From assembly GCA_001784725.1 (NCBI GenBank), contig MFRX01000009.1, forward strand, positions 22,335 through 68,414: a stretch of DNA of 46,080 nucleotides, written 5' to 3'. The translations under genes and the position numbers were made by a program. Shown here one piece after another: positions 1,140 through 37,727 of this stretch. The notes under the pieces were generated by a model. That model had not been told where the DNA came from. It did not search any database and saw only the letters and a list, made by a program, of their open reading frames with translations. This DNA comes from Candidatus Moranbacteria bacterium RIFCSPHIGHO2_02_FULL_40_12b (GTDB lineage Bacteria; Patescibacteriota; Minisyncoccia; Moranbacterales; 2-12-FULL-40-10). The stretch's first letter is position 1. Each line of letters begins with the position of its first letter.

Positions 1140-3827
1140 ATGGAAAAAATCTACCACACGCTTACCGCAGAGGAAACTATAGAAAACTTGAGCTCCAGTG
1201 CAGGCGGTTTAAGCGAGAAGGAGGCAAGAAATCGCTTGTCGCGTTATGGATTGAATAAACTTCCAGAAAAAAAACCGGAGGGCTTTTTTTTGATTTTTCT
1301 CCGTCAGTTTCAAAGTCCGCTTATCTACATACTACTTTTGGCTATGGTTATTGTGTTCGCCACCGGGGAAAACGCGGATGGGCTGGTTATTTTATTTGTT
1401 ATCGTTTTCAATTCCATTGTCGGCGCGGTTCAGGAAGGAAGAGCGAAGAACACCATGTTAGCGCTAAAAAAATTCATTCAGACCAATGCGACAGTGTTAA
1501 GAGACGGAAAAGAAATCATAATTGCGGATGAAGAAGTGGTTCCCGGTGATATTTTGATTATCCAAGAAGGAGAAAAAATTCCGGCTGACGCCAGAGTTAT
1601 TCGTTCTAATAGTTTCAGGGTTGATGAGTCAACTCTCACGGGAGAATCAATTTACAAATACAAAATCACAAGCGCCATCCAGAATATAAATACTCCGATT
1701 GCCGATCAAAGTAACATTATTTTTCGGGGAACTGGCGCGATAGGAGGCAATGGCAGGGCGGTGGTTATCGCCACCGGCTCCAATACGTATATCGGAAGAA
1801 TAACGGAAAAAATCGCCGAAATTGAAAGCGAAATCCCTTTAAAAAAGGAAGTTGCAAGATTATCCAAAATTATTATGGCAGTGGTCTTTGCCATAGTTTT
1901 AATGTTATCTGTTTTAGGTTCGCTTTATAATTTTGACTGGCGGGAGATATTTAAGACCGCTGTGGCAATTTCGATTTCTGTCATTCCGGAAGGACTGCCA
2001 ATCGTCATGACTTTAGTTTTGGCAACCGGAGTACGGAGGATGAGCAGAAAGAATGTACTGGTAAAAAAGTTGCAGGCGGTGGAAGCGCTGGGGCAGGCAA
2101 AAGTAATCGCAGTGGATAAAACCGGCACGTTAACAAAGAATGAACTTTCGGTTGAAAAAGTTTTTGTCAACGGCAGATTTTTTGAGATCAGCGGGCTCGG
2201 ATATGAACCCAAGGGAGATGTTTATTTGAAAGGAAAGGCGGTGAACGCGTCAAATTACAAAGAGTTATTGCTAATGGGAAAAATAAGCGAGTTTTGCTGC
2301 AACGCCCGATTGGCCTTTTCTGAAAGCTTGAGTAAATGGCAGGTTTTCGGAGATCCCACGGAAGCCGCTATGCTTGTTTTTTCTGAAAAATTGGGATTCC
2401 GCAGGGAAATATCGGAAGACGAGTCGCCACGGATCGCGGAAATCCCATTTGACTATAAAAACAAAATTCACGCCACTCTGAATCAGGAAGAGAAAATTAA
2501 TTTTTTATCGGTTGCCGGAGCTCCCGAAAACGTTTTGGCGCTATGCGATAAAATAGAGATAGGAATAAAGTCCCACGTCCTTGATGATGAAAAAAGAGAG
2601 GAATTGGAAAAAATATTTGCTTCAATGTCGAGAAAAGGATTAAGAATCATCGCGCTTGCAATGACCAAGGTATCCGAAAAAAATATAGATGTTGATAATC
2701 TTTCACCCCTTGTTTTTGTCGGTTTTTTAGGCATGAAAGATGTCCTTCGGGAAGATGCCAGAAACGCTGTTCTGCGCACTCGCTTGGCAGGCATTAAAGT
2801 TGTAATGATAACGGGGGATCACAGAATAACGGCGGAAGCGGTTGCTAGAGAAGCAGGAATAATTTATTCATCCAATTCAAGCAGAGTAATAACGGGGAAA
2901 GAAATCGAAAAAGCAAGCATAAAAGAACTCGCGGAAATATTGCCTGAAGTCAGCATTTTTGCCAGAGTCAATCCGGAACACAAGATGAAAATAATTGAGG
3001 CCTACAAAGAGCGGGGAGAAATAATCGCGATGACCGGAGACGGGGTTAATGACGCCCTTTCATTAGTCGCCGCCGATCTCGGCGTAGCGATGGGGAAAAG
3101 CGGGACGGAGGTGGCTAAGGAGGCCTCGGACATTGTTCTTTTAGACGATAATTTTGGAAACATAGTTTTCGGCGTGGAAGAGGGCAGGAATATATATAAG
3201 ACGATTAAAAAAGTAATATTATATTTATTTTCAACCAGTATTGGCGAGGTCCTGACAATTATCGGAGCGATCTTTATCGGATATCCTTTGCCTATTTTGG
3301 CGGTTCAGATAGTTTGGCTCAATCTGATTACGGACGGTTTTTTAGATGTGGCTTTGGCGATGGAACCGAAAGAAGACGGATTGCTGAAAGAAAATTCTTT
3401 AGGAAACAAAAGAAGGTTGGTTGATAAATTAATGATTAAAAGAATGTTTTTAATGGCTTTGCCAATGATGCTGGGAACTCTTGCGCTTTTCGGCAGCTAT
3501 TTTAAAGAGGACTTAACCAAGGCATGGACTATTTCTCTGACTTTGTTGGCGATCTTCCAATGGTTCAACGCTTGGAATTGCCGTTCCGAGTTCCAATCAA
3601 TCTTCCGAATGAAATTTTTTTCTAATAGATATTTAATTCTCGCCACGCTTATTGTCATAACATTGCAAATTTTGGCTATTTATGCTCCGGCGCTTCAGAA
3701 AATTTTACATACTGTGCCGCTAAAATTGTCGGACTGGCTCATTCTCATACCCGTTGGCTTTTCGATTATTTTAGTCGAAGAAGCCAGAAAATTAATTCAT
3801 AGAAAATTTAGCAAATATATTCTATAA
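1140..3827 (+). CDS. P-type cation-transporting ATPase (type II, Ca2+/Mg2+-like)
   Basis: 895-aa ORF with the phosphorylation motif DKTGTLT, TGES, the hinge MTGDGVNDALSL and multiple TM segments. Confidence 0.95.
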   Translation: MEKIYHTLTAEETIENLSSSAGGLSEKEARNRLSRYGLNKLPEKKPEGFFLIFLRQFQSPLIYILLLAMVIVFATGENADGLVILFVIVFNSIVGAVQEGRAKNTMLALKKFIQTNATVLRDGKEIIIADEEVVPGDILIIQEGEKIPADARVIRSNSFRVDESTLTGESIYKYKITSAIQNINTPIADQSNIIFRGTGAIGGNGRAVVIATGSNTYIGRITEKIAEIESEIPLKKEVARLSKIIMAVVFAIVLMLSVLGSLYNFDWREIFKTAVAISISVIPEGLPIVMTLVLATGVRRMSRKNVLVKKLQAVEALGQAKVIAVDKTGTLTKNELSVEKVFVNGRFFEISGLGYEPKGDVYLKGKAVNASNYKELLLMGKISEFCCNARLAFSESLSKWQVFGDPTEAAMLVFSEKLGFRREISEDESPRIAEIPFDYKNKIHATLNQEEKINFLSVAGAPENVLALCDKIEIGIKSHVLDDEKREELEKIFASMSRKGLRIIALAMTKVSEKNIDVDNLSPLVFVGFLGMKDVLREDARNAVLRTRLAGIKVVMITGDHRITAEAVAREAGIIYSSNSSRVITGKEIEKASIKELAEILPEVSIFARVNPEHKMKIIEAYKERGEIIAMTGDGVNDALSLVAADLGVAMGKSGTEVAKEASDIVLLDDNFGNIVFGVEEGRNIYKTIKKVILYLFSTSIGEVLTIIGAIFIGYPLPILAVQIVWLNLITDGFLDVALAMEPKEDGLLKENSLGNKRRLVDKLMIKRMFLMALPMMLGTLALFGSYFKEDLTKAWTISLTLLAIFQWFNAWNCRSEFQSIFRMKFFSNRYLILATLIVITLQILAIYAPALQKILHTVPLKLSDWLILIPVGFSIILVEEARKLIHRKFSKYIL

Positions 3828-3834
3828 TAACCAG

Positions 3835-4764
3835 ATGATTAAATTAGAAAAAAATATTTCACTTTCTAATTACACGACTTTCCGCATCGGTGGGCCGGCG
3901 AAGTTTTTTATTGAAGTTAAAAATGAAGAGGAATTATTGGAAGCGCTGGATTACGCCAAAAAAAATAATTTGGATTTTTTTATCCTGGGCGGTGGCAGTA
4001 ATTTATTGGTGAGTGATAAAGGTTTTGACGGGTTAGTTATTAAAATGCATAATTCATCATTCCTAATTCATAATTCATCTTTAGAATGCGGCGCTGGCGT
4101 TCCCTTGGCTAAAGCGGTAAGAGAATCTGTAAACAGCGGATTGACCGGCCTTGAATGGGCAGCAGGGATTCCGGGAACGGTCGGAGGGGCGGTGCGTGGC
4201 AATGCGGGAGCATTTGGCGGCAACGCATCTGATGTGGTAAAAAAAGTCAGCGTGCTGAATACGGAAGAATTAGGAATTAAGAATTATGAATTAAGCGACT
4301 GTAATTTTAAGTACAGGGATAGTGTTTTCAAGCAGAATAAAAATTTAATAATTTTGTCTGCGGTTTTTAAATTACAAAAAGGGAATAAGGAGGAAGGCCG
4401 GAAAAAAATCCAGGAAATTATAAAAAAAAGAATTTCTGTCCAGCCGCAAGGAATGCCGAGCGCCGGATCTTTTTTCGTCAATCCAGTCGTTAATAATCCG
4501 AAAATTATTGAAGAATTTGAAAAAGAGACAGGGAAAAAAAGCAAAGAAAGTAAAGTGCCGGCGCCGTGGCTTATTGAACAAGCGGATTTGAAGGGAAGAC
4601 AAATCGGCGGAGCAAAGGTGAGCGAGAAGCACGCCAATTATATCGTCAATACTGGCAATGCCACCGCGGAAGATGTTATAATGCTAGCAAGCATTATAAA
4701 ACAGCAGGTGAGGGATAAATTTGGGGTGGAGCTGAAAGAGGAAGTGCAGTATTTAGGATTTTGA
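3835..4764 (+). CDS. murB: UDP-N-acetylenolpyruvoylglucosamine reductase
   Basis: 309 aa. FAD-binding N-terminus (NYTTFRIGGPAKFF, ILGGGSNLLVSD), GLTGLEWAAGIPGTVGGAVRGNAGAFG core, and a C-terminal GGAKVSEKHANYIVN motif typical of MurB. Confidence 0.9.
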   Translation: MIKLEKNISLSNYTTFRIGGPAKFFIEVKNEEELLEALDYAKKNNLDFFILGGGSNLLVSDKGFDGLVIKMHNSSFLIHNSSLECGAGVPLAKAVRESVNSGLTGLEWAAGIPGTVGGAVRGNAGAFGGNASDVVKKVSVLNTEELGIKNYELSDCNFKYRDSVFKQNKNLIILSAVFKLQKGNKEEGRKKIQEIIKKRISVQPQGMPSAGSFFVNPVVNNPKIIEEFEKETGKKSKESKVPAPWLIEQADLKGRQIGGAKVSEKHANYIVNTGNATAEDVIMLASIIKQQVRDKFGVELKEEVQYLGF

Positions 4765-4767
4765 TTT

Positions 4768-4851
4768 CTTTACGAATTACGAATTTAGTACGAATATACG
4801 AATATCTTGATGATAAATTAGTATATTCGTAAGTGATTTGTAATTAGTAAA
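4768..4851. repeat. Heptamer-based palindromic intergenic element (TACGAAT class), copy upstream of hpf
   Basis: Left arm tttacgaattacgaatttagtacgaatatacgaat. It is answered by the right arm agtatattcgta...gtaattagtaa. Near-identical to the copy at 20443..20524. Confidence 0.8.
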
Positions 4852-5232: not shown

Positions 5233-5344
5233 AAATAAAGATAAAATCCTTTCCACTTTCAAATTTATAAACTGATTATTTTACAGTGTGTTATATGAAA
5301 ACCTCTCTTTGACTAAGGGGGATTTTTTTTGTAGAATAACTAAA

Positions 5345-5421
5345 GGAATTATGAATCAGGAATTACGAATTAAGGGTATTTTTTTGTTTTCCATAATTCA
5401 TAATTCTTTATTCATTATTCG
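5345..5421. repeat. Heptamer-based palindromic intergenic element (GAATTAT/CATAATT class), upstream of secA
   Basis: ggaattatgaatcaggaattacgaattaag faces ccataattcataattctttattcattattcg as an inverted repeat. Confidence 0.7.
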
Positions 5422-5426
5422 AACAA

Positions 5427-8096
5427 ATGTCCATTTTCAAAAAAATCTTCGGTTCCAATGAAAGGGAAATCGCGAAAATGCGGCCGATCGTGGAGAAAAT
5501 AAATTCACTCGGGCCGGCAATCGCCAGACACTCCGATGAAGAGCTGAAGAATAAGACAACTGAATTTAAAGAATTATTAAAAAATGGCAAGTCGCTGGAT
5601 GAAATACTGCCGGAGGCCTTTGCGGTAGTTCGGGAAGCGGCCGACCGGGTGATAAACGAGCGCCATTTTGACGTTCAGCTTTTAGGCGGGATAATCCTTC
5701 ATCAGGGAAAAATCGCCGAGATGAAAACCGGAGAGGGCAAGACCCTGACTTCGACGCTGGCTTTATATCTCAACGCACTGGAAGGAAAAGGCGCCCATGT
5801 TGTCACTGTCAATGATTATCTGGCTAAAAGGGACTGCAACTGGATGGGCGCGATTTTTCATTTCCTCGGAATTTCCACGGCCTGCATCATCCATGACGCG
5901 TCGTATATTTACGAACCGAAAATTGTTGACAGCGACGAAGTGAGCGTGGAAATGGAAAATCTAAAGCTGGTGAGCAGGAAAGACGCCTATAACGCCGACA
6001 TCACTTACGGCACTAACAATGAATTCGGATTTGATTATCTGCGGGACAATATGGTGCAGGATTTGGGACAAATGAGCCAAAGGGAATTGAATTATGCCAT
6101 TGTTGACGAAGTGGACTCTATTCTCATTGATGAAGCGCGCACCCCACTCATTATTTCCGCGCCGGACACCGAATCAACCAAAATGTATCAAAAATTCGCC
6201 CAGATAATTCCGCGCCTCAAGGAAAAGGACGACTATGAAATTGACGAAAAAATGAAAGCGGTTACGCTCACTGACGATGGAATAAATAAAGTAGAACAGA
6301 TTCTGGGAATGGGTAATTTATATGAGCCGGGAAAGATAAATTATGTTCACCACTTGGAGCAGTCGCTTAAAGCCGAGGTTCTTTTTAAGCGCGACAGGGA
6401 CTATGTCGTGAAGGACGATCAGGTGATTATCGTTGACGATTTCACGGGCCGGCTGATGCAGGGACGGCGCTACAGCGAAGGGCTTCACCAGGCGATTGAA
6501 GCCAAGGAAGGCGTGCAGGTGCAAAGAGAATCAAGAACATTAGCCACTATAACTTTCCAGAATTATTTCCGGATGTACAAGAAACTTTCGGGAATGACCG
6601 GCACGGCGATTACCAGCGCGGAGGAATTTGCCAAAGTGTATAAACTGGATGTTACTGAAATTCCAACCAATAAGCCGATGATAAGAATTAATCACCCCGA
6701 CATGATTTACAAGACGGAAGAAGGAAAGTTCAATGCGATTGTTGAAAGAATAAAAGAAATAAACAAGGCCGGCCAGCCAATCCTGGTCGGAACGATTGCC
6801 ATTGAAAAATCGGAATATTTAAGCGCTTTGCTTTCAAGGGAAGGGGTGAATCACGAAGTTCTTAACGCCAAACAGCATGAAAAAGAAGCGGTGATTGTCG
6901 CTGAAGCCGGGCATAAAAACTCCGTGACAATCGCTACCAATATGGCGGGAAGAGGAACGGATATAAAATTGGGAGAAGGAGTGCGGGAACTAGGCGGACT
7001 TTTTATTTTAGGCACTGAACGGCATGAAGCGCGCCGCATTGACAATCAATTGCGGGGACGCGCCGGACGGCAAGGGGATTCCGGAATGTCGCAATTCTTT
7101 GTTTCCCTTGAAGACGAACTGATGAGGAGATTTGGGGGGGATAAGCTCAAAAATATGATGGATACCCTCGGCCTTCCCGAGGACCAGCCGATCCAGAATA
7201 AAATAATTTCCAAGACCATTGAAAGCGCCCAGTCCAAGATAGAAGGTTTTAATTTTGACATCCGGAAACATGTTCTGGAATACGACGATGTGATGAATAA
7301 GCAAAGGGAAGTGATATACAAAAAAAGGAAGGAAATACTTGGAAAGGAAGATATTAAAAATAATATAACTGATGACGCCAAAGACGAAATGGAAAAAATT
7401 GTCTCGCTTCATTGCATTGACGAAGAAGTCAATTGGGATATTGATTGCGTTTTCAATGAGGCGAATAATATATTTCCAATTAAGGAAGAAGCCAGGAATA
7501 ATTTTGAAACAATCCGCGGCGATAAGTCAAAAAATGAAATTGAGAAAAAAGGCGCGATGCTGGATTATCTGGTGGATCTGATGAAACAGGCCTATAACCA
7601 AAAAGAAGCGGAGATTAGTCCGGAAAATATGAGGCGCGTTGAAAAATTAGTCGCGCTCCAAACGATTGACAATTACTGGATGAATCATTTGGACGAAATC
7701 GATTATATCAGGCAGGGAATAGGGCTCCGCGGTTATGGCCAGAGGGATCCTTTGGTGGAATATAAACGGGAGGCCTTTGATATGTTTTCACACCTGGTCG
7801 CAAATATCCAATCGGCGATAGTGCGGACGATGTTCAGGATTTCAATGGTTCCGGCTGGAACGCAAAAAACGCAGGAGCAGGAAAAAAATATGCAATTCAA
7901 AGGGGCGGATGAAAGCATCGGGCAATTCGGCGGAAAAAATAATATAAAGCCGTCTGAATCTGGCGAAAGTGAAGAAATAAAACAAAAGCCGATTATCAAT
8001 AAAGATAAAGTCGGCCGCAATGATCCCTGTCCGTGCGGAAAAACTGATCCAAATACTGGTAAGTCAATTAAATATAAAAAATGTTGCGGGAAATAA
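5427..8096 (+). CDS. secA: Preprotein translocase ATPase SecA
   Basis: 889 aa. Contains MKTGEGKTL (Walker A), VDEVDSILIDEARTPLIIS, TNMAGRGTDIKLG, and a C-terminal zinc finger CPCG...KKCCG. Confidence 0.97.
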   Translation: MSIFKKIFGSNEREIAKMRPIVEKINSLGPAIARHSDEELKNKTTEFKELLKNGKSLDEILPEAFAVVREAADRVINERHFDVQLLGGIILHQGKIAEMKTGEGKTLTSTLALYLNALEGKGAHVVTVNDYLAKRDCNWMGAIFHFLGISTACIIHDASYIYEPKIVDSDEVSVEMENLKLVSRKDAYNADITYGTNNEFGFDYLRDNMVQDLGQMSQRELNYAIVDEVDSILIDEARTPLIISAPDTESTKMYQKFAQIIPRLKEKDDYEIDEKMKAVTLTDDGINKVEQILGMGNLYEPGKINYVHHLEQSLKAEVLFKRDRDYVVKDDQVIIVDDFTGRLMQGRRYSEGLHQAIEAKEGVQVQRESRTLATITFQNYFRMYKKLSGMTGTAITSAEEFAKVYKLDVTEIPTNKPMIRINHPDMIYKTEEGKFNAIVERIKEINKAGQPILVGTIAIEKSEYLSALLSREGVNHEVLNAKQHEKEAVIVAEAGHKNSVTIATNMAGRGTDIKLGEGVRELGGLFILGTERHEARRIDNQLRGRAGRQGDSGMSQFFVSLEDELMRRFGGDKLKNMMDTLGLPEDQPIQNKIISKTIESAQSKIEGFNFDIRKHVLEYDDVMNKQREVIYKKRKEILGKEDIKNNITDDAKDEMEKIVSLHCIDEEVNWDIDCVFNEANNIFPIKEEARNNFETIRGDKSKNEIEKKGAMLDYLVDLMKQAYNQKEAEISPENMRRVEKLVALQTIDNYWMNHLDEIDYIRQGIGLRGYGQRDPLVEYKREAFDMFSHLVANIQSAIVRTMFRISMVPAGTQKTQEQEKNMQFKGADESIGQFGGKNNIKPSESGESEEIKQKPIINKDKVGRNDPCPCGKTDPNTGKSIKYKKCCGK

Positions 8097-8777: not shown

Positions 8778-8800
8778 ATATTATATTTAAAGGTAAGCTT

Positions 8801-8857
8801 GCATTATTCATAATTCTTAATTCCAGCAATATGGTTTCTTTTGAAAAATCCGTCGGG
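8801..8857 (+). repeat. Left direct repeat of the island (attL-like)
   Basis: 57 nt repeated at 12809..12879. The right copy carries an extra 14 nt. The 41-nt exact core is TTAATTCCAGCAATATGGTTTCTTTTGAAAAATCCGTCGGG (8817..8857 = 12839..12879). Confidence 0.9.
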
Positions 8858-8881
8858 ATTGTGGTGTTTTGGTTAATATAA
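8831..8881 (+). pseudogene. Duplicated 5' fragment of the Nudix gene at 12853 (16 codons, then stop)
   Basis: The first nine codons (ATG GTT TCT TTT GAA AAA TCC GTC GGG) are identical to those of the intact gene at 12853. The sequence then diverges and reaches TAA at 8879..8881. Confidence 0.7.
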
Positions 8882-8921
8882 CTAAAAAATGGCTTAAATA
8901 AAGCATAAAGTCGAAACCTTC

Positions 8922-8950
8922 TTGACTTTTTTGTTTTTGCGTGCTAGTTT
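8922..8950 (+). promoter_or_regulatory. Putative sigma70-type promoter of the island's first gene
   Basis: TTGACT, a 17-nt spacer, then TAGTTT. The spacer and -35 closely resemble the promoter at 30546..30574. Confidence 0.45.
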
Positions 8951-9021
8951 GTCAGGTTCCTTATATTTTTAAATTGGAAAGTTCTTTGATTTTATGCGCG
9001 AGGAGGAGGTGAAAATATTTC

Positions 9022-9058
9022 GTGCGGTATTCTAAGGGGCGGGAGTTTCACTTCTGCC
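9022..9058 (+). repeat. Hairpin module U0 (GTGCGGT word plus GGGGCGGGAG/CTTCTGCC hairpin)
   Basis: 8-bp stem 9038..9045 / 9051..9058, including two G-T (G-U) pairs that are only valid on the + strand. Followed by CTGCCA. Lies about 35 nt upstream of the 9094 start. Confidence 0.6.
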
Positions 9059-9093
9059 ACGGAAAATAATCTTGAATTTTTTAGGAGGTAAAA

Positions 9094-9735
9094 ATGGCAC
9101 CAAAAACAGCAACGCTTCCGGAAACGGAAACATCTGAACAGATGAAAATCAATACATATAAGGTAACCTGCAGGGGAATTTCCCCGATTCTCATGAATCC
9201 AGCGACAGAGGAACTGCTCAATCAGCTTGACGGCGGAGCAGGAGCGCGTACTCCAAAAGATATGGTTTCAACTCCGGAGCAGAAAGCTGAGAGGAAAATA
9301 ATCCGGGATGAAAACGGGAATGTCGGCGTGCCGTCCAGTTATTTATTCAGTTGCTTGCGCGAAGCGGGCCGGCGCGTTCCATATGACGCCAAGACGAAGA
9401 TTTCCACTAAAGAAAGCACAATTCTTCCGGGACTGATGTCAATCGTGGAAATTTTCATTCCTTTTATTGATCAAGATGCGAAATGGGAAGTGGACCGGAG
9501 AAGAGGCATGCTTCCCAAAGATGGAACCGCGGTTTGTATCACCCGCCCGCGTTTTAACGAGTGGGCATTTGCAGTGACAATAGAAGTGGATGAAGGACAG
9601 GTTTCGCCTGGAAAAATAAAGGAACTTTTCAAGGTAGCGGGAAGAATGGTCGGCCTTGGGGACTTCCGTCCATCATGCAATGGACAGTTTGGAAGGTTCC
9701 GGGTAGAAAACTGGGAGAAGATAAAAGAAACTTAG
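9094..9735 (+). CDS. RAMP-like protein (Cas5/Cas6/Cas7-type motifs); function unknown
   Basis: 213 aa with the strong RBS taGGAGGtaaaaATG. Motif GVPSSYLFSCLREAGR (aa 78-93) resembles the RAMP P-x-S-S-h-K-G-x-h-R motif. The C-terminal glycine-rich loop is VGLGDFRPSCNGQFGRFRV (aa 186-204). Confidence 0.45.
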   Translation: MAPKTATLPETETSEQMKINTYKVTCRGISPILMNPATEELLNQLDGGAGARTPKDMVSTPEQKAERKIIRDENGNVGVPSSYLFSCLREAGRRVPYDAKTKISTKESTILPGLMSIVEIFIPFIDQDAKWEVDRRRGMLPKDGTAVCITRPRFNEWAFAVTIEVDEGQVSPGKIKELFKVAGRMVGLGDFRPSCNGQFGRFRVENWEKIKET

Positions 9736-9753
9736 TAAAATACCTTTCGTTCT

Positions 9754-9829
9754 GTGCGGTTAAGTTTCGTACTGCCTTCCCCAGCAGGGTTCGGTGGAGT
9801 TCGGAGCAGGGACTCAATGAGTCCCTGCT
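9754..9829 (+). repeat. Hairpin module U1
   Basis: GTGCGGT (9754..9760), AGCAGGGTTCGG (9783..9794), and an 11-bp perfect stem agcagggactc / gagtccctgct (9805..9815 / 9819..9829). Confidence 0.65.
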
Positions 9830-9886
9830 GAAATTACTAATGTACTTAAGAGTTGCAATAAAAACTGTTCTCTACTGTTTAGTTCA

Positions 9887-9940
9887 GTGCGGTAGGGCGC
9901 AGCAGGGTGCGGGGCAGGACAGAAGAATTTCTGTCCTGCC
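9887..9940 (+). repeat. Hairpin module U2
   Basis: GTGCGGT (9887..9893), AGCAGGGTGCGG (9901..9912), and a 12-bp perfect stem ggcaggacagaa / ttctgtcctgcc (9913..9924 / 9929..9940), followed by CTGCCATC. Confidence 0.7.
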
Positions 9941-10030
9941 ATCTCTTTCAGAGATTTTAATAAAATTGAAATTTCTAGAAGGGAGAATTTTTTTCCAATG
10001 AGTTCTTTATAATTTTAAAAGGAGATTGAA

Positions 10031-10240
10031 ATGAGGAAGAAAAACAGAGATAGAAAAGAGAAAGAGATTGTAATAAGAGTATCAGGAGTAGAAAGTTTTG
10101 TTCAAGGCAGCAGTAATAATTTGATTATAGATGTTGAAATGAATAAAGAGAATATCTGGATGGCAAAAGTTGAGTCGGAAATTACTCTAAAAGAAATATT
10201 ATACAGAATATGGCCGAACATCGCGCGCATTGTAAAGTAA
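10031..10240 (+). CDS. Small hypothetical protein (69 aa) inside the island
   Basis: Good RBS aaAAGGAGattgaaATG. Occupies the only AT-rich gap between GC-rich hairpin blocks. No recognisable motif. Confidence 0.5.
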   Translation: MRKKNRDRKEKEIVIRVSGVESFVQGSSNNLIIDVEMNKENIWMAKVESEITLKEILYRIWPNIARIVK

Positions 10241-10241
10241 C

Positions 10242-10343
10242 GTGCGGTGGTGTGTGGCTCGGTCCAGCTAGGAGTTAGTAGCGCAGTGAGCGGTCCGGTC
10301 CGCCAGAGCTTGGGGCAGAGTCACTGATAATTCAAACTCTGCC
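10242..10343 (+). repeat. Hairpin module U3
   Basis: GTGCGGT (10242..10248), then about 65 nt of GC-rich sequence, then stem ggcagagt / actctgcc (10314..10321 / 10336..10343), followed by CTGCCAAATTTT. Confidence 0.6.
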
Positions 10344-10429
10344 AAATTTTCTAAAAATTTTAAACCATTGAAATTTTTGAAAAGTTCTTTGAATCATAGA
10401 CAAGGCAGTGTTTAGTCTTGTCCGGTTGC

Positions 10430-10487
10430 GCGCGGTTCTCGACGGCGCAGTAAAGTTTGGAGCAGGGGATTTATTTGGATTTCCTGC
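10430..10487 (+). repeat. Hairpin module U4
   Basis: GCGCGGT (10430..10436). Stem 10462..10471 / 10478..10487 with G-U pairs valid only on the + strand. Followed by CTGCCAG. Confidence 0.55.
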
Positions 10488-10508
10488 CAGAACGCTTAAC
10501 GCAGATTT

Positions 10509-10586
10509 AGCAGGGTACGGCGGAGCAGCGCGCGGTGTAGTTGGGTTGTGTCGCGCATGGGGCAGGAATTAATTCTAATTCCTGCC
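10509..10586 (+). repeat. Hairpin module U5
   Basis: AGCAGGGTACGG (10509..10520), GCGCGGT (10530..10536), and stem ggcaggaatt(a) / (t)aattcctgcc (10561..10586), followed by CTGCCATCC. Confidence 0.7.
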
Positions 10587-10681
10587 ATCCCTTTCCGAGA
10601 ATTTCATTATTTGGAATTTTCAGAAAGGGAATAAAAAGTGTCTTTGGCACTTTCCCATTTGTCCTTTAAAAAGGAGAAAAA

Positions 10682-12466
10682 ATGAAACATCAGAAATATC
10701 TCGATCTTCTGGAATTTTTTCCGGTTGATCAATATCCAAAGCCATTGAAAAATCAAGTGCTGGCTTTGGAAGCAGCAGAAAAAAATGCATCAACGCTTTT
10801 AGAATTGCCGACTGGTTCAGGTAAAACTGCAATCGGCTACACTTTCTTGAAGGCGTTGAAAAGTTCGAGTAAGTCGCCACTTTTCTACATTGTTCCAAAT
10901 AAGACATTAGTTAATCAAGTGCGTGAACTTCATCCCGATGTTAAGGTTGTTTATGGACGTAATGAATATCTCTGTCCTTATTACAGAGACGGCAATGTGA
11001 CAGCCGATGAATCGCCATGTTCAATGTTGGATTGTCCGCATCGGGTAGATCAGGAAACAGGAGAAACCGAAGCTGGAGGAGTTGAGCCGTGTCCCTATCT
11101 TCAGGCCAAATATGAAGCCAAAAGAGGAGACATAATTGCCTGCACTATGTCTTTTTATCTTTTCACCCATCTTTTTTCCAAAGAATGGGATGAGACGGCC
11201 GGACTAGTGATTGATGAAGTGCATCGGTTGGCAAATGTTTTCCGCAATTCTTTGAGTTATGAGATTACGGATTATTATTTAGACAGGATAATCGAGCTCC
11301 TTTCGGAAATTTCTCCAAACGAAGCCAAGATCATATCAGAATTCAGGCGTAAGATGATGAAAATTATCAAGCGCCGTCCACCCAGAACCGCAACGCTTTT
11401 AAAAGCAGGCGAGGTTGCCGAGCTCTTGAGAGAACTTTACAAAATCGATTCGAAAAAAATGCGGAAAGCCGTCAAGGAAGCGGTTAAGCGAGGTGGCATT
11501 GATGTGGTTGCTCAGCGTGAGGTGCTGAAAAAAACCGAAATGATCACTCGCAACCTGATCCGTTATCTCAAGTCATTGGAATTTTCCTTGCCGACGGCCA
11601 AAAGAAATCCTCTCAACTATACTTACGCTTTTTATGAGAAGGATTCGGATGGAAATGGAAAATCGCAGTATCGCTTGGTAATCAGGGCATATTATGTGGC
11701 TCCACTTATCCAAAAAATATTGCCTGAAAAAACACTGGCTTATTCGGCAACAATCGGCGATCCCCAAATCATCAAATATGAAACCGGGATAGATTTTTCT
11801 TTCTATTCTTTTCCGTCTAACTTTCCGTCAAGAAATACTAAAATTTTTCTATCGACTGACATGCCTAATCTTGCGATGAAGGCCAGAAGAAAGCAGGATC
11901 TTACGCGTTCTTTGCGCAAGGTCGCAAAAGCGGCAAAAATCTTTGCTGATTCCGGCATACGGTCGCTCGTTGTGGTTGTTTCCGAGATGGAAAGGCAGAA
12001 GTTTATGATGTTGGCGAAAGAAGAAGGCGTTGAGGCGATAAGTTATGGCAACGGCGTAAAACCCAGAGTCGCCGCTGAAAAATTCAAGAGTGGTGGGAGC
12101 GATGTTCTCGTGGGCACGGTGTCCAACTATGGCGAGGGTGTGGATCTTCCTAAGAAGATTGCGCAAGTGACATTTTTTCTGCGGCCGGGATATCCCAATC
12201 CGCATGATCCGCTCACGATTTTTGAAGAACGAAGATATGGAAGCGTGCGCTGGAAAATTTGGAACTGGCGGGTGATGATAGAAGCGCTTCAGGTGCGCGG
12301 ACGCAATGTGCGGAGCGCCAAGGATACCGGTGTGACTATCTTCATTTCCCAGCAGTTCGGACGGTTCCTTTATGCCAGTCTTCCGGAGTGGCTCAAGGAA
12401 TCATTTGAGGGCAAATTGACTTGGGATGAATGTATTACTGATGCAAAGACATTGCTGGCAAAATAA
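10682..12466 (+). CDS. XPD/Rad3/DinG-family superfamily-2 helicase with Fe-S cluster domain
   Basis: 594 aa with RBS aaAAGGAGaaaaaATG. Walker A is LELPTGSGKT and the DEAH-type box is VIDEVHRL. Four Cys lie between them (LCPYY, SPCSMLDCPH, EPCPY), as in the XPD 4Fe-4S domain. Also has SATIG, YGEGVDLP and QVRGRNVRS (motifs III, V, VI). Confidence 0.85.
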   Translation: MKHQKYLDLLEFFPVDQYPKPLKNQVLALEAAEKNASTLLELPTGSGKTAIGYTFLKALKSSSKSPLFYIVPNKTLVNQVRELHPDVKVVYGRNEYLCPYYRDGNVTADESPCSMLDCPHRVDQETGETEAGGVEPCPYLQAKYEAKRGDIIACTMSFYLFTHLFSKEWDETAGLVIDEVHRLANVFRNSLSYEITDYYLDRIIELLSEISPNEAKIISEFRRKMMKIIKRRPPRTATLLKAGEVAELLRELYKIDSKKMRKAVKEAVKRGGIDVVAQREVLKKTEMITRNLIRYLKSLEFSLPTAKRNPLNYTYAFYEKDSDGNGKSQYRLVIRAYYVAPLIQKILPEKTLAYSATIGDPQIIKYETGIDFSFYSFPSNFPSRNTKIFLSTDMPNLAMKARRKQDLTRSLRKVAKAAKIFADSGIRSLVVVVSEMERQKFMMLAKEEGVEAISYGNGVKPRVAAEKFKSGGSDVLVGTVSNYGEGVDLPKKIAQVTFFLRPGYPNPHDPLTIFEERRYGSVRWKIWNWRVMIEALQVRGRNVRSAKDTGVTIFISQQFGRFLYASLPEWLKESFEGKLTWDECITDAKTLLAK

Positions 12467-12530
12467 ATACTTGCCAATGTAGTGCCCGTTTATGTAGAGT
12501 ATTGTTACGTATGGCTTAAGTATTGCGCGG

Positions 12531-12556
12531 GACGGGAATTCATTTGAATTCCCGTC
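12531..12556 (+). repeat. Hairpin module U6
   Basis: 11-bp perfect stem gacgggaattc / gaattcccgtc, preceded by GGG and followed by GAAATTTTT. Confidence 0.65.
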
Positions 12557-12626
12557 GAAATTTTTCAGCACAGCTTATGATGTTTTGAATGCTAATGTTT
12601 TGCTGAGTCACGTTCAGTTCAGTATG

Positions 12627-12653
12627 GGACGAGAATTCAAATGAGTTCCAGCC
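12627..12653 (+). repeat. Hairpin module U7 (degenerate copy of U6)
   Basis: gggacgagaattcaaatgagttccagcc aligns to U6 but has several stem mismatches. Confidence 0.4.
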
Positions 12654-12737
12654 ATAAAAATTTTACTGTGCCAGGTCATGTTCGGTATAGTTGGCTCCGG
12701 TGGAGAAGGGCATGGCAGTCAATGGTCTTCAACATGG

Positions 12738-12772
12738 GGCAGTGATTTCAATAAATCTCTGCCATTTTTTTT
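12738..12772 (+). terminator. Hairpin module U8, acting as an intrinsic terminator at the island's right end
   Basis: Stem ggcagtgattt / aaatctctgcc (one T-T mismatch), followed by A and then T8 (12765..12772). Confidence 0.7.
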
Positions 12773-12808
12773 GGAAAATTAGTGTGTTATAATTTAAAAC
12801 ACGCCACC

Positions 12809-12879
12809 GCATTATTTTTGATTCTTAATTCACAATTTTTAATTCCAGCAATATGGTTTCTTTTGAAAAATCCGTCGGG
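12809..12879 (+). repeat. Right direct repeat of the island (attR-like)
   Basis: Matches 8801..8857. Contains the start codon and first 9 codons of the intact Nudix gene. Confidence 0.9.
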
Positions 12880-13317
12880 GCGGTTTTGTTCCGGCGGGTA
12901 AACAGCAAAAATAAATATCTTCTGCTTCATTATAAGTCCGGCCATTGGGATTTTCCCAAAGGGCATCAGGAAAAAGGCGAGAATGACGAAGTAACGCTCC
13001 GAAGGGAAGTAAAAGAAGAAACCGGAATCCAGGACATCAAAATAATTCCGGGATTCAGCAAAAAAATCGGATATTTTTATGTTGCCAAAGGAAAAGAAAG
13101 AAAAAAACGGCTGAAGGTTCAAAGAGGAATAAAAATTAAAAAACAAGTTATCTACTATTTAGCCGAAACGCGGGAAAAAGAAGTGAAAATTTCTTTTGAA
13201 CATGTCGGCTTTCGGTGGCTGGACTATTCCCAGGCGCTCAAGAAAATTACTTTCAAAAATTCAAAAAATGTGCTCATTTTGGCTAATAATTATTTTGCTA
13301 AAATACCGGGGTCTTGA
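12853..13317 (+). CDS. Nudix hydrolase (Ap4A-hydrolase-like)
   Basis: 154 aa with the Nudix box GHQEKGENDEVTLRREVKEETGI, preceded by HWDFPKG. Confidence 0.85.
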   Translation: MVSFEKSVGAVLFRRVNSKNKYLLLHYKSGHWDFPKGHQEKGENDEVTLRREVKEETGIQDIKIIPGFSKKIGYFYVAKGKERKKRLKVQRGIKIKKQVIYYLAETREKEVKISFEHVGFRWLDYSQALKKITFKNSKNVLILANNYFAKIPGS

Positions 13318-16509: not shown

Positions 16510-17112
16510 CTACTCGCTGGCCTTTGCTATTGTAATTTTGTTTCTGCCTCCACGCTTGGAAGCGTAGAGGGCGTTATCTGCTTTTTTAAAAACTTCTTCC
16601 ATGGTCAACTTGGAAGTCGAATCATATTCCATAATTCCGGCGCTGATCGTCACCTGAATGTTAGCGGGATTGGACTTTTCCACTTCGGCTCTAATACTCT
16701 CCGCGACTCTTATCGCTCCCTCGGTATCAGTATGGGGAAGTAGAATAATAAATTCTTCTCCGCCAAATCTTCCCGCTTTATCTGTTTCTCTGACTCTTTC
16801 CTTTATGATTTTTCCGATTTCTGCCAGTACCACATCGCCAACAGGATGTCCGTAGGTGTCGTTGATGTTCTTGAAATGGTCAATGTCAAACGTTATTACG
16901 GTTAATTTCACTCCATCTCTGCCGGCCCTTTTGTATTCCTGGCGGAATAAGTCCATTATACCTTTTCTGCTATAAAGTTTTGTTAATGGATCCGTTATTA
17001 CAGCAATTTTTAAAGTTTCGTTTTCAACGTTTAATTCTGTAATTTTTGTCTGTAATTCCTCAACTACCTTCTTTAAATATTCGTTTTCTGTTATTAATTC
17101 TTTGGTATTCAT
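16510..17112 (-). CDS. Diguanylate cyclase (GGDEF domain) with N-terminal coiled coil
   Basis: 200 aa with DPLTKLYSRKG, FDIDHFKNINDTYGH and the active site RFGGEEF. A hairpin at 16494..16523 overlaps its stop codon. Confidence 0.9.
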   Translation of the reverse strand: MNTKELITENEYLKKVVEELQTKITELNVENETLKIAVITDPLTKLYSRKGIMDLFRQEYKRAGRDGVKLTVITFDIDHFKNINDTYGHPVGDVVLAEIGKIIKERVRETDKAGRFGGEEFIILLPHTDTEGAIRVAESIRAEVEKSNPANIQVTISAGIMEYDSTSKLTMEEVFKKADNALYASKRGGRNKITIAKASE

Positions 17113-20401: not shown

Positions 20402-20431
20402 TTTTTTTGACTAAGTAAAGAATTTATTTTG

Positions 20432-20440
20432 TGGTATAAT
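20432..20440 (+). promoter_or_regulatory. Extended -10 promoter element TGGTATAAT
   Basis: Exact TGnTATAAT immediately upstream of the 20443..20524 repeat, which places the repeat in the porG 5' UTR. Confidence 0.5.
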
Positions 20441-20442
20441 AA

Positions 20443-20524
20443 TTTTACGAATTACGAATTTCATACGAATATACGAATAAATCTTTTGAGAAATTCGTAT
20501 ATTAGTAATTGATTAGTAATTAAT
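20443..20524. repeat. Heptamer-based palindromic element (TACGAAT class), upstream of porG
   Basis: ttttacgaattacgaatttcatacgaatatacgaata ... aaattcgtatattagtaattgattagtaattaat. Near-identical to 4768..4851. Confidence 0.8.
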
Positions 20525-20535
20525 AAAAAAATTGC

Positions 20536-27329: not shown

Positions 27330-28422
27330 ATGAAAGAACTCCAAGAAAAATTAGATATTTTAAAAGCTAAAATCCCGCAATTGCGGGACTGGCTTTGATG
27401 TTGCCGGTAAAAAGCGGACTATTGCGGACTTGGAACGGACTACCGCGGAGAAAGAGTTTTGGAGCGACAATCAGAAAGCAAGCGAAACAATGAAAGAGTT
27501 GGAATTATTGCGAATAGAAGTCGGGGAAATTGAAAATACTGAAAAAAGAATTGAAGAAATTTCGGGCCTCGCGGAAATCGCGGAAAACGAAAAAGACGCG
27601 GCGGAAATTGAAAAGGAAATCGGGAAAATCGGGGAGATGATGGACAAACTGGAATTCAAAACGCTTTTTAACGGCCCTTATGACAAAAACGACGCCATCC
27701 TTTCTATCCATAGTGGCGCTGGAGGCGTGGACGCGCAGGACTGGGCGGAAATGCTGCTGCGGATGTATCTGCGCTGGGCGGAAAAAAATAATTTCAAAGT
27801 CCGCCTCATTGACGAATCGCGCGGGGGAGAAGCGGGAATAAAAAGCGCGACTTTCGAAGTGGAAGGGCCGTACGGGTACGGACATCTTCAGTCAGAAGCC
27901 GGAGTGCATCGCCTGGTCCGGCTTTCGCCGTTCAACGCGGATAATCTCCGCCAGACATCTTTCGCGTTGGTCGAAGTCCTTCCGATAATATCCGAAATGG
28001 AAGAAGTGAAAATAAAACCGGATGATCTCCGGATTGATACTTTCCGCTCGGGGGGAGCTGGCGGCCAAAGCGTCAATAAAACCGAAAGCGCCGTCCGCAT
28101 AACTCATATACCGACCGGCCTGGTGGCGGCTTGCCAGAATGAAAGGTCGCAAGCGCAAAATAAGGAACAGGCGATGAAGGTTTTGAAAGCCAAACTGCAT
28201 CAGAAATTTCTGGAGGAAAAGGAAAAGGAAAAAATGAAACTGCGCGGTGAATACAAGAGCGCCGAGTGGGGAAATCAGATCCGGTCTTATGTTTTACATC
28301 CGTATAAAATGGTAAAAGACCACCGGACGAAATATGAAACTTCAGACGCGGAAAAGGTGCTGGACGGGGAAATAAGCGAATTTATTGAGGAATATTTGAA
28401 GTTTGCGGCAGGAAAGAAATAA
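27330..28422 (+). CDS. prfB: Peptide chain release factor 2, requires a programmed +1 frameshift at 27393..27399
   Basis: Frame 0 reads MKELQEKLDILKAKIPQLRDWL, then CTT TGA T. Shifting +1 gives DVAGKKRTIADLERTTAEKEFW and joins the 330-aa ORF, which carries the SPF and GGQ motifs. Confidence 0.93.
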
Positions 28423-28433
28423 TGGTAAAATAA

Positions 28434-28534
28434 CTTTACTAATTACGAATCAATTACTAATATACTAATTTTTTAAAATTTATTCATATATAATTCGTTA
28501 ATAATTCGGATATAATTAGAATAGCAATTCGAAT
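28434..28534. repeat. Heptamer-based palindromic element (ACTAATT/ACGAAT class), upstream of ftsE
   Basis: ctttactaattacgaatcaattactaatatactaatt ... taattcgttaataattcggatataattagaatagcaattcgaat. Confidence 0.7.
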
Positions 28535-28536: not shown

Positions 28537-29217
28537 ATGATTAAATTCGAAAATGTCACCAAAATATTTCCGGGCGACTTTATCGCTTTGGAAGACATTG
28601 ACCTCTTTATTGACAAAGGAGAATTTATTTCCATTGTCGGGCAGAGCGGCGCCGGAAAGTCAACTTTATTGAAACTTATATACGCGGAAGAACAGCCGAC
28701 AACCGGAAAGGTTTATTTTGAGGAAAGGCCTTTGGACGGAATTAAAAGGCGGCATCTGCCGTATTATCGCCGTAACATTGGAACGGTATTTCAGGATTTC
28801 AAGCTTTTGCCGCAGAGGACTATTTTTGAAAATGTGGCATACGCCTTGGAAGTGGCGGGGGAAACGAACGCGGAAATCAGCGAAAAAGTTCCGAAAATTT
28901 TGGATATCGTGGGATTGGGCGACAAGATGGAGAAATTTCCCAAGCAGCTTTCAGGCGGGGAGCAGCAAAGGGTCTCCTTGGCGCGCGCCCTTATTCACCG
29001 GCCGAAAGTCATTATCGCCGACGAACCAACGGGAAATCTGGATCCGATTTCCACCTGGGAGCTTATTAAGCTTTTGCTTAAAATTAATGATTTTGGAACA
29101 ACGATTCTTCTGGCCACGCATAATAAGAATATCGTGGATCGGATAGGAAAAAGAGTTGTCGCGCTTGATAAAGGAAAAGTGATAAGGGATCATAAGAAAG
29201 GCAAATATGTGATATAG
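28537..29217 (+). CDS. ftsE: Cell-division ABC transporter ATP-binding protein FtsE
   Basis: 226 aa with GQSGAGKST, LSGGEQQRV and IIADEPTGNLD. Followed by ftsX. Confidence 0.9.
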   Translation: MIKFENVTKIFPGDFIALEDIDLFIDKGEFISIVGQSGAGKSTLLKLIYAEEQPTTGKVYFEERPLDGIKRRHLPYYRRNIGTVFQDFKLLPQRTIFENVAYALEVAGETNAEISEKVPKILDIVGLGDKMEKFPKQLSGGEQQRVSLARALIHRPKVIIADEPTGNLDPISTWELIKLLLKINDFGTTILLATHNKNIVDRIGKRVVALDKGKVIRDHKKGKYVI

Positions 29218-29316
29218 CTTTACGAATTACGAATCAATACTAATATACGAATCTTTTTGGTTTGATTAAAGACATAGGCATCATTAGTATATTCATATAA
29301 AATTCGTAATTAGTAA
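29218..29316. repeat. Heptamer-based palindromic element (TACGAAT class), upstream of ftsX
   Basis: ctttacgaattacgaatcaatactaatatacgaatc ... cattagtatattcatataaaattcgtaattagtaaa. Confidence 0.8.
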
Positions 29317-29326
29317 AAAATTTATT

Positions 29327-32233: not shown

Positions 32234-32277
32234 AAAAAACTATTCTCAAATTCTTAAGAATTTGAGAATAGTTTTTT
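32234..32277. repeat. 44-nt perfect palindrome (copy 1)
   Basis: aaaaaactattctcaaattctt|aagaatttgagaatagtttttt. Its 40-nt core is repeated at 32633..32672. Confidence 0.9.
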
Positions 32278-32312: not shown

Positions 32313-32654
32313 ATGTTTGGTATAATACAAAATAAAAGGGGAGGTAAAAACATAAAATCACAAAATATTAAAATTATGCAAAAAACCAGCAAACAATTAG
32401 AGAGGCACTTCAAGGGAGTTGCCAATCACCACCGGATTGACATTTTATTACTGATTAAGAGTAATAGGGGAATAACACTGGATAAAATTTCCAGGAAATT
32501 GAGATGTAATATCAAAACCATATCCGAACACACCAGAAGATTGGTCCAAGCAGGGTTAGTCAATAAAAAATACTTCGGCAATTCAGTAAAACACTCTCTC
32601 ACGCCATACGGAGAAAAATTTTTTGACTTCATAAAACTATTCTCAAATTCTTAA
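32313..32654 (+). CDS. ArsR/SmtB-family winged-helix transcriptional regulator
   Basis: HHRIDILLLI...ITLDKISRKLRCNIKTISEHTRRLVQAGLVNKK matches the ArsR HTH pattern. The ATG at 32313 lies 6 nt after TGGTATAAT (possibly leaderless). An alternative start lies at 32376. Confidence 0.75.
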   Translation: MFGIIQNKRGGKNIKSQNIKIMQKTSKQLERHFKGVANHHRIDILLLIKSNRGITLDKISRKLRCNIKTISEHTRRLVQAGLVNKKYFGNSVKHSLTPYGEKFFDFIKLFSNS

Positions 32655-32672
32655 GAATTTGAGAATAGTTTT
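32633..32672. repeat. 40-nt perfect palindrome (copy 2), centred on the ArsR-like stop codon
   Basis: aaaactattctcaaattctt|aagaatttgagaatagtttt. The TAA stop (32652..32654) sits at the dyad centre. Confidence 0.9.
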
Positions 32673-32743
32673 TATTGCAGTATTATAAGGAGATTATCAA
32701 AACGATATTATGTAAGACAATAATTTTATAACTTTGTGATATT

Positions 32744-35768: not shown

Positions 35769-35770
35769 TA

Positions 35771-35857: not shown

Positions 35858-35880
35858 CATGTATAATAAAAATAAAAAAT

Positions 35881-37659: not shown

Positions 37660-37727
37660 CTTGATTATATCCGTAATTCTGTATGTTTGCAAAAGAAGTT
37701 TTATTGGGATAAAATTGAGTAGAAATA

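Follow-up and report, generated by a model that had tools for sequence, protein, structure and literature searches.

The closest described relatives of the locus reported here are the VIPR (Viral Interference Programmable Repeat) systems, which carry out RNA-guided DNA recognition (bioRxiv 10.64898/2026.04.26.720920, 10.64898/2026.04.26.720927). Their Vipr protein is described as a RAMP protein of approximately 20 kDa with a single RRM, branching before Cas5, Cas6 and Cas7. It assembles into polymers on guide RNAs (vrRNAs), which consist of 9-16 YNNGG units and a structured 3' tail, with one protomer to each repeat; it flips out the bases GGY and presents NN to double-stranded DNA, with every third target base being skipped (10.64898/2026.04.26.720920, 10.64898/2026.04.26.720927). 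In the type II system of Escherichia phage SUSP1, cryo-electron microscopy revealed that GGY is read by residues H17, R138, D177, W178 and R179 (2026 VIPR preprints). The present locus lies in a stretch of 46,080 nucleotides (46 kb, the window) from contig MFRX01000009.1 of Candidatus Moranbacteria bacterium RIFCSPHIGHO2_02_FULL_40_12b. Its central gene, here called vipr, encodes a protein of 213 amino acids (aa), for which membership in the VIPR family is very probable. The gene is part of a cassette of approximately 4 kb (about 8870-12830) that also holds some nine vrRNA-like units and a gene for a helicase.

Further features of VIPR systems are given in the 2026 preprint. A VIPR locus is described there as vipr and one vap gene between non-coding RNA regions; types III-V carry nucleases or helicases, types III and V being the only nuclease types. 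Accepted vrRNA repeats are at least four tandem YNNGG units, or the variants NNNGG, YNNNG and NNNNG, and vrRNA arrays interspersed with ribozymes are reported. The catalogue lists 667 representatives, and 25.5% of the systems are located in cellular chromosomes. Phages, satellites and prophages are the targets; antiviral activity is reported for the chromosomal types, and in natural targets the skipped base falls on the wobble position. VIPR is claimed to be older than CRISPR. The published experiments cover phage type II systems, with small-RNA sequencing for types III and V, and no helicase-associated VIPR is among the systems studied experimentally. The preprint already contains the protein family and its minimal layout of two genes, and it also lists YNNNG variants and accessory genes of the helicase type. 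One of the five seed proteins named there, A0A1F4YLN4, has an accession near the RIFCSP aquifer-genome series, an impression from numbering only.

The Vipr protein

The vipr gene is preceded by a strong AGGAGG ribosome-binding site. Its product has the same sequence (100% identity) as OGI17651.1, which is annotated as a hypothetical protein in Candidatus Moranbacteria bacterium RIFCSPHIGHO2_02_FULL; neither OGI17651 nor its locus tag is mentioned in the searchable literature text. No Pfam, NCBIfam or PADLOC profile matched the protein even at E ≤ 10, Cas profiles included, and it therefore stands outside the annotated Cas families. The only match in the profile libraries was to PHROG family phrog_4652 (function unknown), over the full length and at E = 7e-18. 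When the single sequence was searched against the PDB, one meaningful match was obtained, 36pp_D ('SUSP1 Vipr protein', E = 1.2e-4), located in the C-terminal glycine-rich loop. A profile of the 27-member family matched 36pp_D end to end (E = 4.8e-17), with profile positions 6-191 of 198 aligned to residues 3-189 of 202.

The family alignment contains 27 homologues, and residue conservation was followed in a wider set of 114 family members. Invariant columns among the 27 are L33, A65, P80, G92, R151, P152, W157, D190 and R192. The first motif, 'GIP..YLF.CL.EAGR', includes the invariant P80 and G92 and a nearly invariant A91. D190 and R192 are the invariant residues of the C-terminal loop, 'VGLGDFRP...FG.F', in which G187, L188, G189, P193, F199 and G200 are nearly invariant. 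The GGY-reading residues of SUSP1 Vipr, in the order given above, align to N35, R151, D190, F191 and R192; three are identical, one is aromatic for aromatic, and one is His to Asn. R151, D190, F191 and R192 are the same in 113 of the 114 members. By alignment, the invariant residues correspond to the RNA-base readers of SUSP1 Vipr and not to an active site of the Cas6 type (His/Tyr/Lys).

The AlphaFold2 model built from the family alignment (pLDDT 87.3, pTM 0.81) has the order beta-alpha-beta-beta-alpha-beta with an additional beta-hairpin at residues 131-154. The N-terminal 'YKVTCRGIS' is modelled as strand beta-1 (residues 19-28), the first motif as a short strand and helix alpha-1 (77-91), and the second motif as the loop that connects helix 172-186 to the last strand (202-212). 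Both motifs are thus placed where a RAMP protein has its RRM helix-1 and its G-loop. They represent the main RNA-binding elements of the protein. The best 50 PDB matches in Foldseek are all of the Cas7 type (Csm3, type VII Cas7, Cmr4 and Cas7-11), with E of approximately 2e-7, probability 1.00 and TM of approximately 0.5. In a viral structure library the model matches uncharacterised phage proteins of about 200 aa, one of which is annotated as 'Cas system-associated RAMP superfamily protein'. According to the model, the protein has a minimal RAMP fold, in which one RRM core is combined with a thumb and a glycine-rich loop; a second RRM is not present, as 213 aa leave no room for it. The resemblance of the motifs goes beyond chance, because the profile match reaches E = 4.8e-17 to a solved RAMP-type protein and the fold matches are to Cas7 only. 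A first-pass annotation, made from the sequence without database searches, had described a protein of 213 aa with a beta-strand-like start and two RAMP motifs. The open reading frame (ORF) is real, the predicted start is a strand in the model, both motifs are conserved and correctly placed, and the assignment to the RAMP proteins held in the profile and fold comparisons.

Guide-RNA candidates

Strict runs of YNNGG form two tracts in the 46-kb window, compared to 0.07 expected from shuffled sequences. Both are located directly downstream of vipr on the same strand. Related loci of Patescibacteria have a clear 5-nucleotide (nt) period of the form YNNNG, and scanning the window for YNNNG gave eight tracts of 7-12 units each, all on the plus strand and all within the cassette. 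In the 42 kb outside the cassette only two weak YNNNG tracts of 6 units were detected. Nine units can be recognised (U0-U8, Table 1), evidently the 'U0-U8 hairpins' of the first-pass annotation. A hairpin of 8-12 bp ends eight of the nine, U7 being the exception and possibly a decaying unit; U5 is the best-phased guide of the set. The closing pairs of the hairpins are conserved as GG|GGCAG...CTGCC or GACGG...CCGTC. The inner stems vary yet stay complementary (GACAGAA/TTCTGTC, GAATTA/TAATTC, GAATTC/GAATTC, AGT/ACT, GGACTC/GAGTCC), a covariation judged by comparison of stems. The layout, repeat tracts with a structured 3' tail on both sides of the protein genes, matches that published for vrRNAs. 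The hairpins are most likely the 3' handles of guide RNAs on which Vipr polymerises, and not, as had been proposed in the first-pass annotation, substrates for cleavage.

Rfam gave nothing significant for the cassette, and the window yielded neither a ribozyme nor another processing activity. Promoter and terminator counts were no higher than in shuffled sequences. Two further ORFs lie among the units. For the possible 69-aa ORF between U2 and U3 (Table 1), neither Pfam nor PADLOC gave a match, and the 38 related loci contain no homologue; the frame may have arisen by chance or may encode a small accessory protein specific to the lineage. A 108-aa ORF (9675-10001, plus strand), called as a gene in public assemblies, overlaps the 3' end of vipr as well as U1 and U2 and has no family match; the call is probably spurious, the region being one of non-coding RNA genes. 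Among relatives, the Saccharibacteria locus L020 carries 16 YNNNG tracts between vipr and the helicase gene (1595-3669), the largest array seen in the clade. In the related locus L003, repeated elements of approximately 90 nt with CTGATGA...GAAA occur between vrRNA units (6690-6800 and 7040-7140). Hammerhead cores in these elements were a visual impression only, and Rfam gave no match at gathering or permissive thresholds.

The repeat code is relaxed relative to the canonical form. In 609 units from helicase-linked loci, position 1 is T in 77% and C in 20%, and position 5 is G in 92%, although the detector itself required Y at position 1 and G at position 5. Position 4, which the detector left unconstrained, is G in 27% of these units and in 40% of those in the window; because of the latter value the locus is to be placed with the YNNNG variant, canonical YNNGG being a poorer description. 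A YNNNG unit leaves three free bases between two fixed ones (G-Y). In relatives from outside the Candidate Phyla Radiation (CPR), position 4 is G in 77% of the units and position 1 is C in 87%, and long canonical YNNGG arrays adjoin the vipr homologue. Repeat tracts are also present in 74 of 75 viral relatives. The replacement of His by Asn at the position of H17 (N35) was considered as the cause of the lost first G. It is insufficient, since loci with Asn span 0.13-1.00 for G at position 4; those with His are G-rich at that position in nine of nine cases.

The helicase partner

The helicase has the Walker A motif PTGSGKT, a DEVH motif and four cysteines (C98, C113, C118 and C137) that form an iron-sulfur (Fe-S) cluster motif. 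Walker A, DE(V/A)H and the four cysteines are conserved, the cysteines being invariant in 15-17 homologues. The best PADLOC match, over the full length, is 'typeIV_DinG, CAS-IV-A associated' (E = 2.6e-39), which is probably a broad DinG/Rad3 profile. In the PDB the helicase family profile is closest to the Fe-S-containing XPD, FANCJ and CHL1 (Thermoplasma XPD, 1.5e-16); Escherichia coli DinG is matched much more weakly (6.7e-7), and the solved CasDinG is not retrieved. The NCBIfam scores are far below the equivalog cut-offs, so that the helicase constitutes a distinct subfamily. CasDinG is reported to have a vestigial Fe-S domain without the cluster cysteines (PMC10450177). Membership of the helicase in CasDinG was ruled out: the four Fe-S cysteines are kept, CasDinG is missed by the family profile, and no Csf complex is encoded in the window.

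Synteny was surveyed with one genome per species in 38 loci, 22 of the Patescibacteria type (one labelled only 'bacterium') and 16 non-CPR. In 18 of the 22 Patescibacteria-type loci, vipr is followed on its own strand, at a distance of 0.6-2.6 kb, by a helicase homologue (42-56% identity); the contigs of the remaining four end 81-2596 nt past vipr. Vipr itself is 37-69% identical across the divergent Patescibacteria genomes. The helicase is absent from all 16 non-CPR loci and from all 75 relatives on viral contigs. With a conserved helicase partner and flanking guide-RNA genes, vipr is not the orphan for which it had been taken initially.

Variants of the helicase were observed in two settings. 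In ENA ERZ28563641 scaffold_14393 (L116), from the same population, a deletion of approximately 104 nt at about 6267-6278 splits the gene into ORFs of 464 aa and 99 aa; the rest of the cassette is 100% identical. In the Saccharibacteria homologues at L017 and L019, GEGH stands in place of the Walker B motif DE(A/V)H, and PTGSGKT is changed to MGTGSGKT. Judged by these motifs, their ATPase may be impaired.

Target searches

Target scans were made with exact patterns only, whereas the published method allows 20% mismatch. The NNx rule also covers contiguous NNN reading, because x is a wildcard. With nine units of U5 and the NNx rule, the viral collection gave one match (L039:10755-10780). It was rejected as a target: of the four bases in the two units that follow, two match, the wildcards agree with guide position 4 in 4 of 9 cases, and the skipped base coincides with codon position 2. 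No exact match was found in the viral collection for U1 or U8 (NNx) or for U5 read as contiguous NNN. A metagenome scan with U5 gave 47 matches, none extending past 2 of 4 further bases, and these fall into a small number of GC-rich coding motifs that recur. Six skip rules, applied to the 42 kb of the window outside the cassette, revealed no self-target at or above 80% beyond chance. The negative result is a limit of the exact-match method and not evidence against targeting.

Interpretation

The best explanation is considered very probable: a Vipr protein encoded in a 4-kb cassette with about nine vrRNA-like guides and an accessory XPD-type Fe-S helicase. The system is probably of the helicase-associated VIPR type IV, by elimination, as types III and V are the nuclease types. 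Each non-coding unit would be transcribed to a short RNA of 7-12 pentanucleotide repeats with a 3' hairpin handle. As in SUSP1, Vipr protomers would polymerise along the tract into a filament, one per 5-nt unit. N35 of strand beta-1, R151 of the thumb, and D190, F191 and R192 of the G-loop would sequester the constant bases, and the variable bases would be presented for gapped pairing with double-stranded DNA. By the same analogy, the bound complex would silence its target, presumably a phage or mobile element of the CPR bacterium, by blocking transcription or replication. The helicase may be recruited to the R-loop or triplex, where it would load, translocate 5'-3' and extend interference, analogous to CasDinG in type IV-A CRISPR systems. 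Defence by DNA binding and helicase action is favoured with reserve. The data themselves provide the homology to Vipr, the RAMP fold of the model, the conserved RNA-reading residues, the repeat tracts with their hairpin tails and the synteny with the helicase; filament assembly, DNA targeting, silencing and helicase recruitment are carried over from the SUSP1 experiments and from type IV-A.

Several points weigh against this explanation. Two of the contact residues differ from those of SUSP1 (H17 to N35 and W178 to F191), and the canonical GGY/NN consensus is followed only in part, position 4 being G in 40% of the units here. Of the units, U0 is very short and U7 is without a proper tail. The locus stands in the chromosome among housekeeping genes, whereas most VIPRs are borne by phages. 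The four exact-pattern viral scans and the metagenome scan yielded only matches consistent with chance. Finally, the role assigned to the helicase is pure inference, drawn from the analogy with CasDinG.

Of the alternatives, the one that survives best accepts a genuine Vipr-vrRNA system and assigns it to host gene regulation or chromosome maintenance, with the helicase acting in repair or R-loop resolution. It agrees with the housekeeping setting (SecA, NUDIX, SecDF), with the lack of a viral target in the exact-pattern scans, and with XPD/DinG helicases being classically repair and R-loop enzymes. However, no self-target was obtained beyond chance in the remaining 42 kb, and the published VIPR targets are phages, satellites and prophages, with antiviral activity reported for the chromosomal types. 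The multiple divergent guides per locus, with content that varies between relatives, are also a signature of an arms race. This assignment is judged improbable.

A Cas6- or Cas5-like endoribonuclease with a single RAMP domain, which would recognise and cleave the nine hairpins, was the proposal of the first-pass annotation. A RAMP fold with a G-loop is indeed predicted, conserved hairpins flank vipr, and the RNA ends need something to define them, as no ribozyme or processing activity was identified in the window. Nevertheless, the best 50 Foldseek matches all have a Cas7 backbone and include no Cas5 or Cas6, neither family is matched by profile, and the invariant columns contain no His, Tyr or Lys. 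The full-length homology is to Vipr, which coats repeats and forms filaments, and the 5-nt periodic tracts before each hairpin would be left unexplained. Cleavage by this protein is very improbable. The least probable reading, a decayed and non-functional CRISPR-Cas remnant with an orphan type III/IV Cas7 and a DinG-like helicase, can appeal to the Cas7-like fold, to the type IV-A DinG label of the helicase's best match in a defence database and to the population variant with the 104-nt deletion, but is contradicted by the lack of a CRISPR array and of cas1/cas2, Csf, Csm or Cmr genes in 46 kb, by the lack of a Cas7 profile match, by a helicase that keeps the four cysteines and whose family profile does not retrieve CasDinG, and by a two-gene-plus-RNA module that is intact, with its catalytic motifs, in at least 18 divergent Patescibacteria genomes, which points to purifying selection on a self-contained system.

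Returning to the helicase-associated VIPR system, a more far-reaching proposal concerns the whole helicase-linked Patescibacteria clade. To our knowledge, CPR bacteria are mostly without CRISPR-Cas. The clade might use a read-out different from the GGY/NN one-skip code, for example three bases per protomer without a gap, coupled to the Fe-S XPD-like helicase instead of passive silencing. It would then represent a VIPR variant with a distinct mechanism, whose design has converged with that of type IV-A CRISPR, and possibly the main RNA-guided defence of CPR bacteria. This proposal is speculative and, taken as a whole, rather unlikely.

The locus is a compact and complete helicase-associated VIPR, which combines nine guides of relaxed YNNNG repeat with an XPD-like Fe-S helicase on a single clonable piece of 4 kb. 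It is suited to asking how many bases are read per repeat, what the helicase adds to a triplex-binding filament, and whether ultra-small CPR bacteria use VIPR as RNA-guided immunity. Also, reading raw sequence for RAMP motifs can recover proteins that the Cas and defence profile libraries miss.

Cassette borders and genomic context

The coordinates of the features are summarized in Table 1. The cassette is bracketed by direct repeats that are 89% identical over 63 nt with an identical core of 41 nt. What is duplicated is the ribosome-binding region of the downstream NUDIX gene together with its first 11 codons, and the left copy ends in a short truncated ORF. The two NUDIX genes of the window are not recent paralogues. 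In the related locus L003 the module is bracketed by a 46-nt repeat (5792-5837 and 9031-9076), a copy of the promoter region of the downstream gene. The vipr-helicase module thus stands, in two independent loci, between direct repeats of 46-63 nt that copy the 5' or promoter region of the next host gene. No integrase or transposase is present inside either module. The repeats could be the att-like footprint of a cassette mobilised in trans, or could reflect capture of a host promoter. A search for an empty site found that all eight assemblies with the identical NUDIX gene carry the cassette, and all are clonal.

Table 1. Features of the window, with the units of the cassette, its borders and a dispersed motif
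Feature	Position	Strand	Remarks
Left direct-repeat copy	8806-8868	+	Displaced copy of the NUDIX 5' region; left cassette edge
U0, short vrRNA-like unit upstream of vipr	~9020-9058	+	About 4 units, TTTCG TGCGG TATTC TAAGG
U0 hairpin	9038-9058	+	GGCGGGAGT-ttc-ACTTCTGCC; RNAfold gives the same stem; weak alone, z = -1.9
vipr, 213-aa Vipr-family RAMP protein (assignment very probable)	9094-9735	+	ATG at 9094; stop codon ends at 9735
U1, vrRNA candidate	9745-9829	+	Begins 10 nt past the vipr stop codon; 12 YNNNG units (11 conforming); 11-bp hairpin tail 9805-9829; fold z = -3.25, 0 of 200 shuffles fold as well
U2, vrRNA candidate	9873-9955	+	8 YNNNG units; 12-bp hairpin tail 9913-9940; z = -4.84; 3' end with small stem 9941-9955 and U-run, terminator-like
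Possible 69-aa ORF between U2 and U3	10031-10240	+	Good AAGGAG ribosome-binding site; 3' end overlaps the start of U3
U3, vrRNA candidate	10228-10343	+	9 YNNNG units, 1-nt phase slip, about 8 more; hairpin tail 10314-10343
U4, vrRNA candidate	10401-10487	+	7 clean and 5 looser units; 11-bp hairpin tail with G-U pairs, 10462-10487; z = -3.39
U5, vrRNA candidate	10506-10586	+	11 of 11 YNNNG units conforming, abutting 11-bp hairpin tail 10561-10586
vap-like accessory gene, 594-aa XPD/Rad3/DinG-family superfamily 2 (SF2) helicase	10682-12466	+	Pfam Helicase_C_2, DEAD, ResIII, DEAD_2
U6, vrRNA candidate	12475-12556	+	8 units, 1-nt slip, 3 units; 11-bp hairpin tail 12531-12556 (GACGGGAATTC/GAATTCCCGTC); z = -3.64
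U7	12578-12653	+	10 YNNNG units; degenerate, poorly folding tail, z = +0.53
U8, vrRNA candidate	12666-12763	+	10 units (8 conforming), linker of about 22 nt, hairpin tail 12738-12763, U-run; z = -2.14
YNNNG tracts from the scan	9745-9804, 9873-9912, 10228-10272, 10401-10435, 10506-10560, 12475-12514, 12578-12627, 12666-12715	+	
Right direct-repeat copy	12828-12890	+	Continuous with the intact NUDIX gene 12853-13317; right cassette edge
AT-rich motif sites	4045-4082, 4265-4297, 4750-4851, 5344-5420, 8795-8823, 12810-12844, 20421-20533, 28412-28478, 29196-29328		

The window is chromosomal housekeeping DNA, with genes for glycosyltransferases, a P-type ATPase, MurB, SecA, two NUDIX proteins, SecDF, a GGDEF protein, PFOR, a release factor, FtsX and ClpB. 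Neither cas genes (cas1/cas2, Csf, Csm and Cmr included) nor a CRISPR array nor phage genes were found in the 46 kb. The GGDEF diguanylate-cyclase-domain protein (200 aa; 16510-17112, minus strand) gave a sub-threshold match to the Cas10/Cmr2 palm; it was rejected as a Cas10, the match being explained by the known homology of the GGDEF and Cas10 palm domains.

Other features of the window were recorded. Perfect inverted-repeat arms of 41 nt, which are palindromic, flank a 113-aa MarR/winged-helix ORF (arms 32235-32275 and 32633-32673; ORF 32313-32654). Inverted repeats of 103 nt (82% complementary; 35768-35870 and 37715-37817) flank a 656-aa ORF (35881-37851, minus strand) with no Pfam match. 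AT-rich repeat motifs (AATTCATAATTC, TTACGAATTACGAAT) occur in many intergenic regions, often as inverted pairs (Table 1), and may be a genome-wide regulatory or terminator motif of the organism. The G+C content is 0.52 at 44001-46000, compared to a window average of approximately 0.41, and no rRNA or other Rfam family was detected there at the gathering threshold.

Comparison with known systems

The best structural neighbours of the protein are Csm3, Cmr4 and type VII Cas7, with which it shares the RRM core, the G-loop, the thumb hairpin and a similar size. However, no sequence-profile match to them exists, and the periodicity is 5 nt here and 6 nt in the Cas7 proteins. Conservation is lacking in the column of D72, which lies in the loop that precedes helix-1 (of the 114 members, 54 have G, 32 have D and 28 have other residues), and there is therefore no sign of a Csm3-like aspartate that cleaves target RNA. 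Membership in the CRISPR Cas7 proteins (Csm3/Cmr4/Csf2) was rejected, given that profile matches, a CRISPR array and partner cas genes are all lacking; the similarity is at the level of the fold only.

Type IV-A CRISPR-Cas shares with the locus a Cas7-like RNA-coating protein, hairpin-handled guide RNAs, a 5'-3' helicase of the XPD/DinG superfamily and the lack of a nuclease. In contrast, the Moranbacteria locus is without Csf1, Csf3, Csf5, a CRISPR array and spacers, and its guide follows a periodic repeat code instead of forming a contiguous spacer. Its helicase also differs from CasDinG in keeping the four Fe-S cysteines, for which reason type IV-A is an architectural analogue and not the family of the locus; the likeness is a resemblance of design and not membership.

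With VIPR types III-V the locus has in common a vipr gene with an enzymatic vap gene, the location in cellular genomes, and alternative repeats including YNNNG. The type II VIPR of SUSP1 is likewise a minimal two-gene locus without a CRISPR array. It has the same kind of single-RRM RAMP protein of about 200 aa, with the D-aromatic-R of the G-loop and the thumb Arg, and pentanucleotide-repeat guide genes with a structured 3' tail on both sides of the protein genes. The Moranbacteria protein is approximately 25-30% identical to SUSP1 Vipr at best. Its repeat is YNNNG (mostly T...G) whereas that of SUSP1 is YNNGG, and its tail is a simple covarying hairpin for which no pseudoknot is predicted. 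The SUSP1 system is located in a phage genome and has the small DNA-binding Vap1, while the present system is located in a Patescibacteria chromosome and has an Fe-S helicase of 594 aa.

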